In this document: positions 9,594 through 33,900 of the stretch, piece after piece
How positions within the stretch are numbered: position 1 is the stretch's first letter
How the letters are laid out: each line of letters starts with the position of its first letter
Assembly: GCA_000165345.1 (NCBI GenBank)
Contig: CM000435.1
Location: 672,001 to 736,000 of the forward strand
Length of the DNA stretch: 64,000 nucleotides
Reading direction: 5' to 3'
Translations under genes and position numbers: made by a program
The notes under the pieces: model-generated
Databases searched by the model: none
What the model was told of the DNA's origin: nothing
The model's input: the letters and a program-made list of their open reading frames with translations, nothing else

Positions 9594-12500
9594 ATGAGAG
9601 AAATTGCCTTAAATAATATTGAATTAGAAAGACGGCCAAATTGGTGGAGAGGAAGTGAATCTGAAAATATTTTGGACCCATACTTTAAGAAGCCAATTTA
9701 CTCGGGCAAATCTAAGTTTAATTTTTTCCCAAAATTTTTAAAAGACAATATGAAATGGTTTAAAAATAGAATTCCATCAAATAATACTAATGACGATTAT
9801 TCTCAACTTAATGAGTATGATAAGAAGGCTATAATAGAATTTAGCAAACAGCAAAAAATAACTCAGGGACAAGAATCTTCACGATATAAATATATTTCGC
9901 CGTATTCTGAATATCTTTTGGAAAGATTAAAATGGAAGATTGCACTTCGAATTTACTACACACTAGATCCTAATGACAAAGGATATATAGAATTAGAACA
10001 TTCCAAGAAATTATTATTTGAAATGCTGAAGGTCGACACGGAAAAGGCACAAACACTCCTTTTGTTACTTGAAACTATTAAACCTTTCTATGCAAAGGAT
10101 GGATGCGTTGAAAAAAATGATATAATTATTTACTTGGCGAGGGAAATTTTCGATGACACAAGAGGGTATGGGCTTTTTTCAAAACTGAACAACATATTTA
10201 AAAATCCAATTAGTAGATCAAAAAAGCGGAATAATGATTGCTTTATCAATGGTTTTCAAGATGTTTATATGCCAAATAAAAAGCAAATATGTTTTTCTTC
10301 TGATCCAAACGCGATAAAGTTAAATGAAACAAATGTTAAGCAAAGTAATTCAAAAGACACAAATTATAATTGTACTTATTGTCAAAACAAAAATAAAGCT
10401 TGTATAACGTGCAAAATGAAAAAAAATTGCACTGGAAAATTAAGAGATCACATAAAGATCAGTGAAGATAGAAAAAGAAAGTTGATTGAGCGAATTAAAG
10501 AAGAAAAAAAAGAAATTAATGACAAAAATATGCTAGAATGCACATTTAAACCAGAAATTTTATGGCCAATTGGGAAATTTATAAATAAAAATAACAAAAG
10601 TTGGTTAAAGAACAAGAAGAATTTGAAAGGATCAAAGCTACCTCAAGAAAAAAAAAATGAAATATGCGGATATGAAATAATTAATGAGCAGAATATAGAA
10701 GATAAAAATATTCAAGTTTTTTTAAATCAAGGTTACTATTTTGATTCACTTAATAATTGGAATGGATATATACATGATAGTATTACAAATCAAGTTTATG
10801 TTATACATAAGGGATATTTTATGGATGATCACAATGTAGACAAAAATGAAATTTTCTATAGAAAAACAGACAAGGAGGAACAGAAGGAAATTCGGAATAA
10901 AATGCTGGATTCAATCATGAGGAAAATAAATATCGAGTTTCAAACTCTAGAAAATAATGAAAATGGCAATGAGAAAAAAAAATCATTAAATTTTGGAACA
11001 AAGAAATTAGTAGATAAACTTAGAGCTGAAAGAGAAACTGGAACTAATGACCCAAGATTAAATACACCAGAATTTACAATAGAAGTTAATCATCCTGAGT
11101 TCGTTGAGAAAATTGTTGATTTTAGTGAAATTAAGCCTTACAAAAATGTAACAAATCATGAAGATTCTGAAATCAAGAGAGAATATTCAACAAGCCCTTG
11201 TTATTATTATCTTCCAAGAGGATACGAAAGAATAGGTAATTGTTTTAATGAAATCCGGTTTAGGAGAAAACTTGATTTTTTAAAAGATAGTGTACGAGAT
11301 AACCGAAACATTGATACAAATAATAGTTCAAATCTGAAGGTGAAATCAAATTCATTTATAAACAAAGAATTTAATACGAAGAACAGTTCTTTATGTTTAG
11401 ATGAAAAGCCAGCTGGCTTAATCGAAGATACAAAAATGTCGAAAATTTTTAATAAATCAGCAAAAATTGATCCATCATCTCTAAAAGATTTAAATAAAAT
11501 TGTTGGTGCTGGCCAAAGTAAAAATGTTCAAGTTGAAAGTTTAGGAGGGTTAAAAAAAAATAATGGTTTAGATCAACACTTGCTCCTTAAAAGCCCATCA
11601 AAAAATGAGACGAACATAATTGGTTCTCATGTAAATGATGAAAGCGATTTTCAAAAAGGAAGTATTTTAGCTACCAAATTTAAGAAAGAATTAGAAGCTT
11701 CAATTAAAACAAAGAATAGTTTAAAAGTTTCATCAAAGATTGATTCCTCAATACATCTAATAAAAAAAGAAGCTGATACTTCAATTCAAACAAAGAGTAA
11801 CCTTAAAATTCCTCCAATAAAGAAAGAAGCTGATACTTCAATTCAAACAAAGAGCAAACTTAAAATTCCTCCAAAGAAAGATTTGTCAACACCTCCAGTA
11901 AAGAAAGAAGCTGATACTTCAATTCAAACAAAGAGCAACCTTAAAATTCCTCCAAAGAAAGATTTTTCAACACCTCCAATAAAGAAAGAAGCTGATACTT
12001 CAATTCAAACAAAGAGTAACATAAGAATTCCTCCAAAGAAAGATTTTTCAACACCTCCAATAAAGAAAGAAGCTGATACTTCAATTCAAACAAAGAGTAA
12101 CCTTAAAATTCCTCCAGTAAAGAAAGAAGCTGATACTTCAATTCAAACAAAGAGCAACCTTAAAGTTCCTCCAAAGAAAGATTTTTCAACACCTCCAATA
12201 AAGAAAGAAGCTGATACTTTAATTCAAACAAAGAAAAGCCTTGTTATTCCACCAAAGAAAGATTCCTCAGTACCTGTAATGAGCAAAGAAGCTGATACTC
12301 CAATCCCAATAAAGAATAATTTAAAAATTCCATCAAAAATAAATCCTTCGATGCCTCCAATAAAGAGAGTAGTTGTTACTTCGACTCAAGCAATGAACTG
12401 CCTTAAAATTCCACAAATGGAAGCAGCATCAGTACCTCCAATTAAGAAAGAAGTTGATACTTCAATTCAAACAAAAAAAAGCCTTATTATTCCACCAAAG

Positions 12501-13421
12501 AAAGATGCCTCAGTACCTGTAATGAACAAAGAAGCTGATACTTCAATTCAAACAAAGAGCAACCTTAAAATTCCTCCAAAGAAAGATTTGTCAACACCTC
12601 CAGTAAAGAAGGAAGCTGATACTTCAATTCAAACAAAGAGTAACCTTAAAATTCCTCCAAAGAAAGATTTTTCAACACCTCCAGTAAAGAAGGAAACTGA
12701 TACTTCAATTCAAACAAAGAGCAACCTTAAAATTCCTCCAAAGAAAGATTTTTCAACACCTCCAGTAAAGAAGGAAGCTGATACTTCAATTCAAACAAAG
12801 AGCAACCTTAAAATTCCTCCAAAGAAAGATTTTTCAACACCTCCAGTAAAGAAGGAAGCTGATACTTCAATTCAAACAAAGAGCAACCTTAAAATTCCTC
12901 CAAAGAAAGATTTTTCAACACCTCCAGTAAAGAAGGAAGCTGATACTTCAATTCAAACTAAGAGTAACCTTAAAATTCCTCCAAAGAAAGATTTTTCAAC
13001 ACCTCCAATAAAGAAAGAAGCTGATACTTCAATTCAAACAAAGAGCAACCTTAAAATTCCTCCAAAGAAAGATTTTTCAACACCTCCAGTAAATAAGGAA
13101 GCTGATACTTCAATTCAAACAAAGAGTAACCTTAAAATTCCACCAAAGAAAGATTTTTCAACACCTCCAATAAAGAAAGAAGCTGATACTTCAATTCAAA
13201 CAAAGAGTAACCTTAAAATTCCTCCAAAGAAAGATTTTTCAACACCTCCAGTAAAGAAAGAAGCTGATACTTCGATTCAAACAAAGAGTAACATAAGAAT
13301 TCCTCCAAAGAAAGATTTTTCAACACCTCCAATAAAGAAAGAAGCTGATACTTCAATTCAAACAAAGAGTAACCTTAAAATTCCACCAAAGAAAAATGGT
13401 TTAGTAACATCATTAAATTAG
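9594..13421 (+). CDS. Large Lys/Pro/Thr-rich tandem-repeat protein (1275 aa); unique N-terminal approx 700 aa, then about 22 copies of a 27-aa unit
   Basis: ATG verified at 9594. The C-terminal half is built of KKEADTSIQTKSNLKIPPKKDFSTPPV units (81 nt). There is no N-terminal signal peptide. Confidence 0.65.
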   Translation: MREIALNNIELERRPNWWRGSESENILDPYFKKPIYSGKSKFNFFPKFLKDNMKWFKNRIPSNNTNDDYSQLNEYDKKAIIEFSKQQKITQGQESSRYKYISPYSEYLLERLKWKIALRIYYTLDPNDKGYIELEHSKKLLFEMLKVDTEKAQTLLLLLETIKPFYAKDGCVEKNDIIIYLAREIFDDTRGYGLFSKLNNIFKNPISRSKKRNNDCFINGFQDVYMPNKKQICFSSDPNAIKLNETNVKQSNSKDTNYNCTYCQNKNKACITCKMKKNCTGKLRDHIKISEDRKRKLIERIKEEKKEINDKNMLECTFKPEILWPIGKFINKNNKSWLKNKKNLKGSKLPQEKKNEICGYEIINEQNIEDKNIQVFLNQGYYFDSLNNWNGYIHDSITNQVYVIHKGYFMDDHNVDKNEIFYRKTDKEEQKEIRNKMLDSIMRKINIEFQTLENNENGNEKKKSLNFGTKKLVDKLRAERETGTNDPRLNTPEFTIEVNHPEFVEKIVDFSEIKPYKNVTNHEDSEIKREYSTSPCYYYLPRGYERIGNCFNEIRFRRKLDFLKDSVRDNRNIDTNNSSNLKVKSNSFINKEFNTKNSSLCLDEKPAGLIEDTKMSKIFNKSAKIDPSSLKDLNKIVGAGQSKNVQVESLGGLKKNNGLDQHLLLKSPSKNETNIIGSHVNDESDFQKGSILATKFKKELEASIKTKNSLKVSSKIDSSIHLIKKEADTSIQTKSNLKIPPIKKEADTSIQTKSKLKIPPKKDLSTPPVKKEADTSIQTKSNLKIPPKKDFSTPPIKKEADTSIQTKSNIRIPPKKDFSTPPIKKEADTSIQTKSNLKIPPVKKEADTSIQTKSNLKVPPKKDFSTPPIKKEADTLIQTKKSLVIPPKKDSSVPVMSKEADTPIPIKNNLKIPSKINPSMPPIKRVVVTSTQAMNCLKIPQMEAASVPPIKKEVDTSIQTKKSLIIPPKKDASVPVMNKEADTSIQTKSNLKIPPKKDLSTPPVKKEADTSIQTKSNLKIPPKKDFSTPPVKKETDTSIQTKSNLKIPPKKDFSTPPVKKEADTSIQTKSNLKIPPKKDFSTPPVKKEADTSIQTKSNLKIPPKKDFSTPPVKKEADTSIQTKSNLKIPPKKDFSTPPIKKEADTSIQTKSNLKIPPKKDFSTPPVNKEADTSIQTKSNLKIPPKKDFSTPPIKKEADTSIQTKSNLKIPPKKDFSTPPVKKEADTSIQTKSNIRIPPKKDFSTPPIKKEADTSIQTKSNLKIPPKKNGLVTSLN
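11683..13400 (+). repeat. In-frame tandem array of 81-nt units (about 22 copies, some 54-nt short variants). The 3' copies are nearly identical and the central copies are degenerate.
   Basis: Repeats are directly visible in the nucleotide sequence (AAAGAAGCTGATACTTCAATTCAAACAAAGAG(C/T)AACCTTAAAATTCCTCCAAAGAAAGATTTTTCAACACCTCCA...) and in the protein (KKEADTSIQTKSNLKIPPKKDFSTPPV). Confidence 0.85.
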
Positions 13422-27845: not shown

Positions 27846-28263
27846 GTGGGGTATATTTATTTATTCTGTATTTTGTAGTGAAAGAATTGCAAATACTCCC
27901 TGATCAATTTAACTGAACAACTGTATTCGTTGATTATCTTTAGTTTTGATATTCTAATTTGAGCTTTTATTTTTGAAAACTTATTCGATTTTTTATTAGA
28001 TCTCGATGTGGAATATTTAAGCCTATTCTAAACGTGATTAATGTCTCGCGCAATGAAAAGTGACTGAAAAAGGAGTAAGCGATAAATTATTAAATTGAAG
28101 GGCAATTTATGACAGGTTAACTTCATTTATATTGCTTATATTAACTATTGTATTAATCTTGGAGAATAGTTTGTAAATATGTAATGTTATTTAGGGAATT
28201 ACATCAAATATTAACTTCATATGAAGAGGCTCATGTTCTTTATTTTTGAACGATCACGTATCT

Positions 28264-29595
28264 ATGGAAGAATTAATTAATGATATTGAAAACATTTCAA
28301 TAAATAGTAATAATGTTGATGAATCGAATACTAAGGATCCCGAAAAAAATGATAATTTTTTTGATTATGAAATTTTATTACCAACTAGGAACCAATTAGA
28401 AGATGATTCTATTCTTTCATTAACGCCAGTTAAGGACAATGATAAGGAACTATTTAAAAATTGTATTCTTTGTAGAGATTATTCAAGCCCAATTTGTAAA
28501 GAATGTTCAAAACATAATTCAAAAACTTCAAGGAAAAGCAAACTCAAAAAAAATAAAATTATCCCAGATGGTAAAGTTAAAGCACTCGCAATGCAATTTG
28601 AAAATATTCTGCCAGAAGTAACAAATAGTAGTCCGAGCTTTTCTATTGTAAATGATAATTTCATGTTAGAGAAGAGCGAGCCTGCGCATTTTCAAGCTGA
28701 TATTTCAATAAATTCAATAATTGAGCATACAAATGTAGATAATAGAGATTATTTGAACACTAGTTTACTTGGGGACCAAACTAATATTCTTAGTATAGAT
28801 TCCGAAAACGACAATGCAAAGTCTAAAATGGCAAAAAATCAATTGACTCCAATTATAGACCCAAATTTGTGCGAAAAAATTGACCCAATAAAAGCAATTA
28901 TTACATCTTCAAACAGTTATATCAATATCGTTGGAAATACAGAAATTGGAAATTGTGCATCTGCTGATACCAAAGTTAGATCAATTGCGACAGAAATTAA
29001 CCATTTATTTGAATGTGGTTTTCCAGAAAACGATTTAATATTTGATCAATTTGAATCATTGAATCCACTAGAGCAGAGGGCTCTACTGCTGAAATGGATT
29101 ACCGAAATTCTGAAAACATCGGAAGCAAGCTCCAAATTATCAAATAATGAATTCAAAGAGATAATAAAAATTTTAAAAAGTATTGTGGATGAGTTAGAAC
29201 GCAATGAAACGTATAAAATATCCAAAAGTTCCCCAAATAACAACTCAACAGAGTATCAGTCAATTCTCAGCCATGTTTTTGATGAAAAGGATGAAAGATT
29301 AATCATTAAAAGAAATGGCATACAAATCCCTAATACTAAGAACTCAATAAAACTGGTGAATTCCAAGTTACAAATAAATATTAGTATTCCTGAAGACGAA
29401 GAGATAGAAGAGGAACGCATCAATGAACTAATATTAAATAAGTATATTTACTCAAGTAGCAACTTCGAATCAAATTCAATAATTATTGACGAAAATAGCC
29501 TGAGCCCAAAATCTGAAATAGTTTTAGATGATGAGGAAATAGTTGGAAACTCAATCAAAGAAATTGGGAATAACTTTTTTGGGTTTTTCAAATAA
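28264..29595 (+). CDS. Hypothetical protein (443 aa)
   Basis: ORF. The track start at 28246 is TTG, and the first ATG is 28264. No family recognised. Confidence 0.45.
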   Translation: MEELINDIENISINSNNVDESNTKDPEKNDNFFDYEILLPTRNQLEDDSILSLTPVKDNDKELFKNCILCRDYSSPICKECSKHNSKTSRKSKLKKNKIIPDGKVKALAMQFENILPEVTNSSPSFSIVNDNFMLEKSEPAHFQADISINSIIEHTNVDNRDYLNTSLLGDQTNILSIDSENDNAKSKMAKNQLTPIIDPNLCEKIDPIKAIITSSNSYINIVGNTEIGNCASADTKVRSIATEINHLFECGFPENDLIFDQFESLNPLEQRALLLKWITEILKTSEASSKLSNNEFKEIIKILKSIVDELERNETYKISKSSPNNNSTEYQSILSHVFDEKDERLIIKRNGIQIPNTKNSIKLVNSKLQINISIPEDEEIEEERINELILNKYIYSSSNFESNSIIIDENSLSPKSEIVLDDEEIVGNSIKEIGNNFFGFFK

Positions 29596-30425
29596 TATGG
29601 TAATAAATGTTGTATTTAATCAATTTTCTTTCTTGGAATAACTTCGTAAATCCAACTCAATTTTTTAAGTATTCTTTAGACAAAGTTGTTGCCTTATATT
29701 CAAACACTTGTTTAAAGTTAACTTAATATTTTCTCGTAATTATTTTTTCATCTATTCTCATCAAACTGCATTGACAATTTAAACATTTTTTGAACCTCTG
29801 GTTTATTATTTGAATTTTTTTTCTCTAGCAATGTTGAATGAACAATAATATTAAGTTTAATCTTATATTTTAATATTAAGCAAATTGCATATCTTTTCGA
29901 ATGAAAAGTGCGAAAAAATAAATAAGCTGGGAATATTTTGTGTAAATAATATCTAGGAATAATAATTATAAATTTATAAGTCTATCGGCTTTATTACAAC
30001 TATATTGAATCCATTAAAACTGATTATTTGGATAACTGAAATATTAGTTAAAAAAACATGTATTATCATTCCTAAATATTAATAAATTTTCATTTAAAAA
30101 GCTTGCTCATGTTAAATTGAACTAAATCCAAAATTGTTGATATTTAACCAAAGTTGAAGAAATATTATTGTTTGGGGCAACAAATTCTAGATATTGAAAA
30201 GAAGCTACAAAAAGAATGGAAATAATTAAAATGGTTGATCAATTCAAACGACACTATTTAATAAATTGTAGAAAAATTCAAGAGGTCAATCTAAATAAAT
30301 ATTTTACGTAAACCATTAAATTTAATTGGCATTAAATCAATAATTTTCAAAACAATGCCAATTCTATTAAGAAAAAAATATTTATTTTCTTTTCAATGAT
30401 TAATTTAAGAATAATTTGATTAACG

Positions 30426-31572
30426 TCAATAGCTCGTTTTAATTTCAATATTTTCAATTGACTTTAAAATGCTATCTAAACCTTTTATTAACCCTATAAA
30501 TAATTAATGAAAAATAATATAAAATAAATAACATACCTTCATTCATCAAAAAATCTTCTTCGTTCTTTCTGTTTTGTTTCAATGCATGCGTGAAATCCAA
30601 CCATCTAATGTCGCATTTTTCAACGTTTAACCTGAATTTATAATTAGACAATCAAATATTCCTCGACTTACAACATAGAACTAGTTTTTTTTGTAATATA
30701 TTTTCTTACCTATCGAAAGCTAATACAATTGAGGTTGCAATAAATCTATAACTTTTTTGCCTTTCCAACCAGAATTTCAGCAGCTCAACTTTTTTTCTTG
30801 TTAATCTAATCAAGTTCGGCGAAAGTTTTAGAAATTCAGACAAAAGTTTCATTGTTTCATTAGAAGTTAATTCTTTACCTCTTTGTCTCGAAATTGTAAT
30901 TTTATCACTAATTAGTCCTTGTATTCTAATTCCAATTTCATATTGGCATGAGTTGTTAATTATCATATACTGTTTAATAGATTTACGTAAAGACTTTAAT
31001 TTATAAAGCATGCCATTCATGAATTCAGTTTTTTCCGGGATACGTTCAATCTTACAAAAAATATCGTTGAACTCTTGTACTAGATCTTCATCTGGGAATG
31101 TTTTAGTAAAAACTTCTCTTAAGTTATAAATAGAATCATTCTTAGATTCTCCTATCCAAGATGTTCCCAATTTCAAATCAATAATGTTAATATTCGAATA
31201 TCCGCTCAAAAAATTTTTCATTTCGATTGCAGATTCAATTTTGAAGTGTTGTAAATTGTGCATTTTTTTATTTAATATTGAATTAATAAAAGATTTCCTT
31301 AAATATATTTTTTTTGATTTCTTTCCAACTTCAATAATAAGCACAAATCTGATAAACTTAGGAATAATATCATGACGTTTGAGGAGATGTTGTTTGTTAA
31401 TGGAACTATAAAAATCCAACTCATTGCAATTATCATTCTTTAATATCTTATAAATATACTTGTTATCTTTAGTAGTTAATAATAGAGTTGATCCCATAAA
31501 TCTTTCATTCTTTTCAGTGGAAAGAACCTGAAAAGGAAAGAGCTCAAAACTATTTATGCTTGAACAAAACAT
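30426..31572 (-). CDS. Inositol polyphosphate kinase (IPK family; IPMK/IP6K-like), three exons: join(30426..30493, 30537..30631, 30710..31572)
   Basis: Exon 1 carries the IPK inositol-binding motif NIIDLKLGTS (PxxxDxKxG) and the SSLLF-type motif SIVLAFD. The track ORF stops there at an AG|GTAAGA. Downstream exons restore the conserved C-terminus: RWLDFTHAL is the IDFAH catalytic motif and NEG|GLIKGLDSILKSIENI is the GYLxGLxNLI motif. The introns are 78 nt (GTAAGA...TTCAG) and 43 nt (GTATGT...TTTATAG), with consistent phases. Confidence 0.7.
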
Positions 31573-32241
31573 AAGTTATTGAATTTATTTGTGCAGATTG
31601 AATATACTAATATATTATATTTCTAATCGACAGCAACTAAAACTTTTTATGCGTATTTTAATTCTTACATTCGATGCTCGAAATTATGTGACATCTTTTT
31701 TAAAATATTTTTTTAATTTATATAGTTGTGACCAACATTAATGAAGTTTATAAATTTACATTTAGATTATTTTGAACTTCATTTTGTGAATAAAATGTAA
31801 TTAGTACAGACAAATATTATTCTCACTATTCTTTAATCAAATCGAAATAACCAACCTACACAACTAAATCCAATACGAAAATAAATTTTGATAATCTTTG
31901 ATGGCACTGCGCTAATTATGTTCTCAAAATATTAATAGTCAAAATTAAAATTTTCAATCAATTATTGCAACCTATGATGATTTCCTTTGCAATTAAATAT
32001 TCGAATATATATATATATTTACATTTTTTCGCAGTAATCTAGAACGAAATATTTTTCAATTCAATAATTGGAGCAAAGATGGAAAGTAATAAGAGATCGA
32101 GTAAAAATAAATTTAATGGTAATTTAATAATTGATAATAAGTATATGAATATGTATTTATATAAATTAAAATAGCTAAAGATACCACACAAAAATGAATG
32201 GTTATGCGTGGTGAAATATTTCAAAATTCAAACAAAAATGT

Positions 32242-33285: not shown

Positions 33286-33900
33286 ATGCCTTCAAATAAT
33301 ATTTGCTCCCCGATAACAAATTCAAATGATGAAAATTCAAATGCGTTAATCTCATCTGGGTGTAAGTCAACTGATTGTCATTGCGAAGGTAATGGGGTCG
33401 TAACCACTCATACTACATCACCAAACGTCACCCAGAAATGCTACATTACTAATTCAGGCTGTCATGAAGCAATTGTAACAACAACAACACAAGAAGTAAA
33501 AAGGCACAAATGTCCACCAAAAATCCAAAAGATTCACGAACATATTAGCCAACCTATAAACTATAATTGTTCGTCTCAATTAGGAAACGTGCCATGCAAT
33601 ATAATGATGAACCCATGCGCGTGTAGTGTTTCAAGAAGCTCATGCCACAGGACTAATCATTGTAACTGTAGTAATGGAAGTGTTCAGTTTATGTGCTGTA
33701 ATAAGTACGCAAATAGTGGATGTGGATGTTCATGTTGTTGCTGTTCTACATCGAGCGTTCAGACTACGTTATATCCTGTATATATGTCGTTCCCATATAA
33801 TCAGGGCAGAAATATCAATGTTCCCTACACAGTTTATTCAACGCCATTAAGCCATACATACAATCCACTCACAGATAATCAATACTCTTATCAATATTAA
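33286..33900 (+). CDS. Small Cys-rich protein (204 aa; Cys clusters CSCCCC, CxC, then a Tyr/Pro-rich tail)
   Basis: ORF with a verified ATG. It has about 30 Cys, including GCGCSCCCCSTSS and CHCEGNG; the C-terminus reads YPVYMSFPYNQ...YSYQY. Confidence 0.5.
   Translation: MPSNNICSPITNSNDENSNALISSGCKSTDCHCEGNGVVTTHTTSPNVTQKCYITNSGCHEAIVTTTTQEVKRHKCPPKIQKIHEHISQPINYNCSSQLGNVPCNIMMNPCACSVSRSSCHRTNHCNCSNGSVQFMCCNKYANSGCGCSCCCCSTSSVQTTLYPVYMSFPYNQGRNINVPYTVYSTPLSHTYNPLTDNQYSYQY

Follow-up and report, generated by a model that had tools for sequence, protein, structure and literature searches.

The locus on the minus strand between positions 31572 and 30426 of the window (the whole 64-kb stretch of DNA that was analysed, from Cryptosporidium parvum chromosome 7, 30.6% GC) is almost certainly a three-exon, spliceosomally processed gene for a 341-residue protein of the IPK/'PDKG' family, with a predicted kinase activity. 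According to the mechanism that we propose, two short, AT-rich introns of the GT-AG type (78 and 43 nt) would be removed from the minus-strand transcript, and each exon would contribute its own part of the enzyme. Exon 1 would supply the ATP-grasp-like N-lobe, the DxKxG substrate/catalytic motif and the SSLLF-type strand, exon 2 a strand bearing the putative metal-binding aspartate (D300 in LDFTH), and exon 3 a C-terminal helix that would pack against the C-lobe. The three-exon model is already known and is present in current C. parvum annotations. The initial annotation, which had spoken of the rescue of a catalytically complete enzyme, was therefore right in that splicing restores the IPK domain and the catalytic Asp, and wrong in presenting this as a new rescue.

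Exon-intron structure and gene records

Exon 1 (31572..30710, minus strand) is 863 nt long and ends in phase 2; it comprises codons 1-287 and two nucleotides of R288. Its 3' end reads GCT TTC GAT AG/GTAAGA, the slash marking the splice junction. When the sequence is read through without splicing, it forms a 288-codon ORF (31572..30706, minus strand) whose peptide ends in ...ATSIVLAFD-R-stop and whose TAA codon (30708..30706) falls within the splice donor, an overlap that had been pointed out at first reading. Any phase-2 intron whose donor begins with GTAA will, if left unspliced, read AGG TAA, and the 288-residue ORF is therefore best regarded as an artefact. Intron 1 (30709..30632, minus strand) is a phase-2 intron of 78 nt with 23% GC; it begins with GTAAGA, ends with TTCAG and carries a branch-like CTAAT 12 nt upstream of its 3' splice site. 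Exon 2 (30631..30537, minus strand; 95 nt) extends from the third base of R288 to the first base of G320, and its translation is (R)LNVEKCDIRWLDFTHALKQNRKNEEDFLMNE(G). It is followed by intron 2 (30536..30494, minus strand), a phase-1 intron of 43 nt with as little as 9% GC, which runs from GTATGT to TTATAG and has a branch-like TTAAT 10 nt upstream of its 3' splice site. Exon 3 (30493..30426, minus strand; 68 nt including the TGA stop at 30428..30426) encodes (G)LIKGLDSILKSIENIEIKTSY, the C-terminal helix of the IPK fold.

Both introns have GT-AG termini, and each combines a consensus-like donor with a branch-like site. The coordinates first proposed for the 78-nt and 43-nt introns and for the exons behind them were reproduced, and the splice phases, 2 and then 1, agree in a joined coding sequence of 1026 nt (341 codons plus stop). 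Forty nucleotides 3' of the TGA, the sequence has an AATAAA hexamer (30381..30386, minus strand) that might possibly serve as a polyadenylation signal, such hexamers being common at 25-30% GC. Peptides such as CDIRWLDFTHALK and GLDSILK are unique to exons 2 and 3.

Two more general points of the initial annotation held in part. It had described the region downstream of the long ORF as ORF-free; exon 2 in fact lies within an ORF of 59 residues (30472..30651), which falls just below a 60-residue cut-off. It had also remarked that the genome uses short introns that an ORF track cannot see, which is correct and is established knowledge: the C. parvum intron count was raised to 688, in about 10.8% of the genes, by Isaza et al. 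in 2015 (PMC4637869). The mean intron length is 99 nt and the GC content 22% (PMC4637869).

The gene in the window is identical to that of CP141124.1, where the annotated gene span is 1147 nt, the sum of 1026, 78 and 43. The joined protein equals, residue for residue (100% identity, 100% coverage), the 341-residue protein of four recent C. parvum annotations: QOY40617.1, WKS78986.1, WRK33472.1 and KAL5367614.1 (CPHLJ_7g2990). The first of these is CPATCC_003496 of C. parvum IOWA-ATCC, the same gene, with three exons and a span of 1147 nt. Orthologues of the same length are deposited for C. meleagridis (POM82737.1) and C. hominis (KAL3127091.1). The 7g2990 locus tags suggest that this locus is cgd7_2990. 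A full-text literature search for cgd7_2990 turned up no paper, and in the supplement of PMC4637869 this tag appears in the dN/dS table only, with a dN/dS of 0.085. Scanning the entire 64-kb window for Rfam families and tRNAs gave no matches.

The IPK domain and its relatives

We then asked how much of the kinase domain is carried by each exon. The comparison of the joined and single-exon products with the Pfam IPK profile (PF03770; 190 positions, gathering score 22.2 bits) had been set beforehand as a check of the spliced model. The single-exon protein scored 52.3 bits and covered positions 2-136 of 190, in line with the earlier remark that the ORF ends too early for an IPK. Adding exon 2, with intron 2 read through, brought the score to 64.3 bits (positions 2-178), and the three-exon protein reached 72.0 bits and positions 2-189. 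The 53 added residues are thus worth 19.7 bits and fill profile positions 137-189, exon 2 contributing 12 bits and exon 3 a further 7.7 bits as the coverage end moves from 178 to 189.

The motifs, whose definition (PxxxDxKxG) and roles are taken as in PMC12694804, are distributed along the exons. Exon 1 contains the N-lobe, the motif IxxxDxKxG (I128, D132, K134, G136), the inositol-phosphate-binding helices and the SSLLF-type strand TSIVLAF. The SSLL(F) strand is present as the variant T-S-I-V-L; ATSIVLAF is invariant across Cryptosporidium and aligns with ASSLLFVY of human IPMK and SSSVLFVY of Entamoeba histolytica IP6KA (EhIP6KA). Exon 2 brings LDFTH, which aligns with IDFAH in the structures of human IPMK (5W2G) and EhIP6KA (4O4B) and is identical in every orthologue that includes exon 2. 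The IDFAH-type motif that had been read in this exon was thus found at the position claimed. Likewise, exon 3 aligns with the C-terminal helices of human IPMK and EhIP6KA, as had been proposed.

The first residue of the PxxxDxKxG motif is the variable one. D132, K134 and G136 are invariant in nine of nine Cryptosporidium orthologues. The proline position is occupied by Ile in C. parvum (I128), C. hominis, C. meleagridis and C. ubiquitum and by Leu in C. canis and in a Cryptosporidium assembled from run SRR18693150 (hereafter the SRR18693150 taxon), and the proline is kept in chipmunk genotype I, C. felis and C. andersoni. Another apicomplexan IPK, Plasmodium falciparum IPMK1, likewise has the hinge Pro of its PDKG motif replaced (QxxxDxKxG; PMC12694804), although with Gln, whereas Cryptosporidium has Ile or Leu. 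With I128 in place of the proline, a normal catalytic competence of the C. parvum kinase is not guaranteed.

An AF2 model built on an alignment of nine orthologues gave an overall pLDDT of 71.2 and a pTM of 0.71. In this model exon 2 forms beta-strands at residues 294-298 and 304-306 (pLDDT 72-86) and exon 3 a helix at residues 319-340 (pLDDT 81-86). A Foldseek search of the PDB with the model returned IP6K, IP3K or IPMK for all of the best 46 matches (E-values from 6e-9 to 1e-5), and the alignments with IPK-family entries extend over about 320 columns. The protein shares the IPK fold with human IPMK (5W2G/6M88) and yeast Ipk2 (2IEW), with Foldseek E-values of 1e-7 to 2e-8, TM-scores of 0.6-0.7 (normalised to the target) and alignment of the DxKxG, SSLLF-type and IDFAH-type motifs; it differs from them by a sequence identity of only 14-15% and by Ile128 in place of the Pro of PxxxDxKxG. 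EhIP6KA (4O4B-4O4F) is the best match both by sequence profile (E 6.7e-6) and by Foldseek (E 5.7e-9), and exons 2 and 3 of C. parvum align with its segments YNCKMIDFAHN and DGFLFGLNNLKSILEDI. The identity to EhIP6KA is 17%, and IPMK and IP3K score practically as well, so that this is no proof of IP6K activity.

Similarity to characterised IPKs is low overall, with 14-17% identity in structural alignments and phmmer E-values of about 1e-4. At the level of the subfamily, the PDB profile scores are 28.5 bits for EhIP6KA and 27.1 bits for human IPMK, and the Foldseek E-values for IP6K, IP3K and IPMK lie within one order of magnitude. The protein belongs to the IPK family, and from these motifs we infer that it would phosphorylate inositol phosphates in an ATP-dependent manner, with a substrate choice that may be IPMK-like or IP6K-like.

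Conservation and alternative gene models

The locus of C. parvum was compared with those of chipmunk genotype I, C. canis, C. ubiquitum, C. felis, C. andersoni and the SRR18693150 taxon (7 taxa in all; the splice sites of C. andersoni were read by hand). The order Rhomboid, 204-residue gene, Maf1, IPK and then a convergent gene of about 440 residues is common to the compared taxa. In all 7 taxa intron 1 has an AG/GTAAG donor and a YAG/AAG acceptor at the homologous codon position, and intron 2 is a GT..AG intron that interrupts the same Gly codon in phase 1. Intron 1 measures 78 nt in C. parvum and 81, 80, 76, 79, 77 and 151 nt in the others; intron 2 measures 43 nt in C. parvum and 43, 43, 46, 41, 45 and 104 nt in the others. 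Because the lengths of intron 2 range over 41-46 and 104 nt across taxa, the differences are not multiples of three. Five taxa have an exon 2 of 95 nt, C. felis one of 92 nt and C. andersoni one of 89 nt, so that indels occur in frame only.

The same pattern is seen at the nucleotide level. In the four taxa closest to C. parvum, identity to the C. parvum sequence is 81-85% for exon 2 and 85-95% for exon 3, and 48-69% for intron 1 and 53-73% after the stop codon. Over the 47 codons of exons 2 and 3 in five taxa, the variable sites number 9, 8 and 22 at codon positions 1, 2 and 3, respectively; 14 codons vary synonymously only, and 12 have amino-acid changes, roughly half of these in the NRKNEE loop. 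Judged from these substitutions, exons 2 and 3 are evidently under purifying selection in the spliced frame. Moreover, joining the orthologous exons in chipmunk genotype I, C. canis and the SRR18693150 taxon raised the PF03770 scores from 51-53 to 67-71 bits, a gain of 16-18 bits, and brought the coverage back to positions 2-189 in all three rebuilt orthologues. Taken together, the conserved splice sites, the drifting introns and the third-position bias indicate functional spliced exons, and not a relic or a chance match.

These data bear directly on the gene models that have been deposited for this locus. The single-exon form is the one found in C. parvum Iowa II (2004 annotation; EAK90312.1/XP_628466.1 = UniProt Q5CYB4, which stops at the TAA of intron 1), and 288-residue-type records also exist for C. 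hominis (CUV07285.1, PPS93990.1), C. tyzzeri (TRY50712.1), C. canis and chipmunk genotype I. Were the 288-residue ORF the true product, the downstream similarity would be the decaying relic of former exons. Run-level assemblies, which contain unspliced sequence only, would agree with this: five contigs from public run assemblies (Logan) that carry the 288-residue ORF, some of them as short as 1.0 and 2.1 kb, follow the genome perfectly through both introns; as genomic DNA or unspliced RNA, they are uninformative about splicing. However, the annotations behind the 288-residue form are largely ORF-based or transferred, and the product would be devoid of the IDFAH Asp and of a quarter of the Pfam domain. 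The bias by codon position and the in-frame indels of the downstream exons are at odds with decay, as is the preservation of the splice sites as far as the gastric species C. andersoni. The RNA-seq-based CPATCC re-annotation (Baptista et al. 2022), in which the introns added were 100% supported by RNA-seq according to a genome-wide statement (PMC8744675), has three exons at this locus. We therefore consider a genuine single-exon gene extremely improbable. An equally slender chance is left to a transcript from which intron 1 alone is removed, intron 2 being retained, to yield a 340-residue protein ending in ...NEGMLFILYYFSLIIYRVNKRFR. The read-through frame is open for 21 codons, and one deposited orthologue, the cubi_02971 model of C. 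ubiquitum, is so modelled. Such a protein nevertheless scores 64.3 instead of 72.0 bits, its Pfam coverage ending at 178 of 190, and the read-through peptides differ between C. parvum (MLFILYYF...) and C. ubiquitum (MQFIVVFCS). The length of intron 2 changes by 2-3 nt from one species to another, whereas exon 3 is conserved at 85-95% DNA identity, together with its GLIKGLDSIL helix and the AG that precedes it.

The remaining alternative concerns the 5' end. In the 342-residue record OLQ17965.1 of C. hominis TU502_2012, an extra mini-exon (ATG at 31694, GTAAGA donor at 31668, AAATAG acceptor ending at 31550) replaces the N-terminus MFCSSINS by MSHNFEHRI. Two deposited C. hominis proteins use this mini-exon, the window encodes ATGTCACATAATTTCGAGCATCGAAT followed by the GTAAGA donor in the correct phase, and a block of roughly 20 nt around it has been kept in four other taxa. 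Against this, chipmunk genotype I, C. canis, C. ubiquitum and the SRR18693150 taxon have no GT at the donor position, and in C. canis the ATG and the frame are missing too. Furthermore, all taxa share, at the protein level, the MC/MF... N-terminus that starts at 31572, and it is from 31572 that the four recent C. parvum annotations and CHM_7g2990 begin. A gene with the mini-exon is thus very unlikely; an element of the 5'-UTR or promoter, or a short uORF, would better account for the conserved upstream block. As a recurrent motif of the window this block, AATTTCGAGCAT, is not enriched, with 13 matches at two mismatches or fewer against 13.7 expected, one match being exact. The three-exon gene starting at 31572 is therefore the model that we retain.

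Implications for the enzyme and for public records

As far as biology is concerned, the gene model brings nothing new, since it has been in GenBank for years for C. parvum, C. hominis and C. meleagridis. Its practical value lies in the clean-up of public records that hold a truncated or mis-spliced protein. The models in need of correction are ELE39_001186 and OJ253_2315 as well as cubi_02971, TRY50712.1, CUV07285.1 and PPS93990.1. The 288-residue XP_628466.1/Q5CYB4 is devoid of the catalytic Asp, as are the records of C. tyzzeri, C. canis, chipmunk genotype I and some C. hominis strains, and read-through of intron 2 deprives the C. ubiquitum model of its C-terminal helix. The case also illustrates that real short introns can be recovered in a first-pass reading from the sequence and a knowledge of motifs alone.

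In a eukaryote-wide survey, C. parvum was found to have one IPK, one PPIP5K, no IPPK and no ITPK (PMC8024741). Our homologue search returned one orthologue per species only, which is consistent with the sole IPK-family gene reported there. One could imagine that a regulated retention of intron 1 yields a conserved kinase-dead form of 288 residues without D300, acting as a scaffold or a dominant-negative beside the active 341-residue enzyme, and, separately, that a sole IPK which has lost the hinge Pro in the C. parvum lineage, in a genome reported to be devoid of IPPK and ITPK, has an unusual substrate range; we regard these speculations as very doubtful. The in-frame TAA is indeed found at the first codon of intron 1 in seven of seven taxa (AG/GTAAG, phase 2). 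This is simply the outcome of any phase-2 GTAA donor. Given the single IPK of the survey, the 341-residue three-exon product would be the only IPK-family enzyme of the parasite, and modelling, expressing or targeting this enzyme from the truncated records would amount to working on a dead fragment.

Orthologous gene models and their repair

Several deposited orthologues of the three-exon inositol polyphosphate kinase (IPK) gene carry faulty models. The deposited proteins ELE39_001186 (C. sp. chipmunk genotype I), OJ253_2315 (C. canis) and TRY50712.1 (C. tyzzeri) stop after 288 aa at the TAA within intron 1, and the same truncation is found in the deposited IPK orthologue of some C. hominis strains. 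The deposited C. ubiquitum model, cubi_02971, retains intron 2 as coding sequence and also takes an internal Met as its start, although the full N-terminus (MCCSSANSCELFPF...) is encoded 5' of that residue. Applying the two introns of the C. parvum gene would correct all of these models; the orthologous loci are L001 3001-3867, L002 3001-3867, L003 3001-3940 and L006 1707-2573. Two large insertions mark the 446-aa orthologue of the gastric species C. andersoni (L005 3001-4653); they fall in the N-lobe and in the region of the inositol-phosphate-binding helix. The introns of this orthologue lie at the same two positions and are longer (151 and 104 nt). These features leave 57 nt of the annotated span unexplained, which indicates a third intron in that model.

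Sequences flanking the IPK gene

About 100-120 nt 5' of the IPK start codon lies a conserved block of about 20 nt, AGATGNNACAYAATTTCGAGCAT (31669..31694, minus strand). It is kept in C. parvum, chipmunk genotype I, C. ubiquitum and the Cryptosporidium assembled from run SRR18693150, is partial in C. canis, and does not recur as a motif within the window. The C. hominis TU502_2012 annotation gives this block the role of a 5' mini-exon; its splice donor is not conserved. In C. parvum it can also be read as a 9-codon uORF (MSHNFEHRM followed by a stop). Possible roles of the block are a gene-specific element of the 5'-UTR or promoter, or a uORF.

On the 3' side, the IPK gene converges with a 449-codon plus-strand ORF (28246..29595), and the 830 nt between the two 3' ends (29596..30425) contain no long ORF. 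This gap is longer than the mean intergenic length of C. parvum, about 550-590 nt (PMC4637869), and Rfam and tRNA scans returned no Rfam match and no tRNA within it.

Two further plus-strand ORFs

The ORF at 9594..13421 encodes a Lys/Pro-rich, repeat-rich product of 1275 aa, in which about 16-20 tandem copies (11698..13394) of an 81-nt (27-aa) PPIKKEADTSIQTKSNLKIPPKKDFST-like unit match at 87-93%. Between Maf1 and the Rhomboid gene, a 204-aa Cys-rich ORF (33286..33900; CxC/CC-rich) keeps its syntenic position in all intestinal species examined, and its orthologues have no Pfam match on record.

The hinge position of the PxxxDxKxG signature

The region of this IPK-family signature lies at 31177..31203 on the minus strand (residues 124-132 onward; motif I128-G136). 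Four species (C. parvum, C. hominis, C. meleagridis and C. ubiquitum) have Ile at the hinge position, C. canis and the SRR18693150 taxon have Leu there, and chipmunk genotype I, C. felis and C. andersoni have the Pro. The hinge Pro of Cryptosporidium IPK is lost in a lineage-specific manner, a loss that resembles the QxxxDxKxG variant of Plasmodium IPMK1 (PMC12694804).
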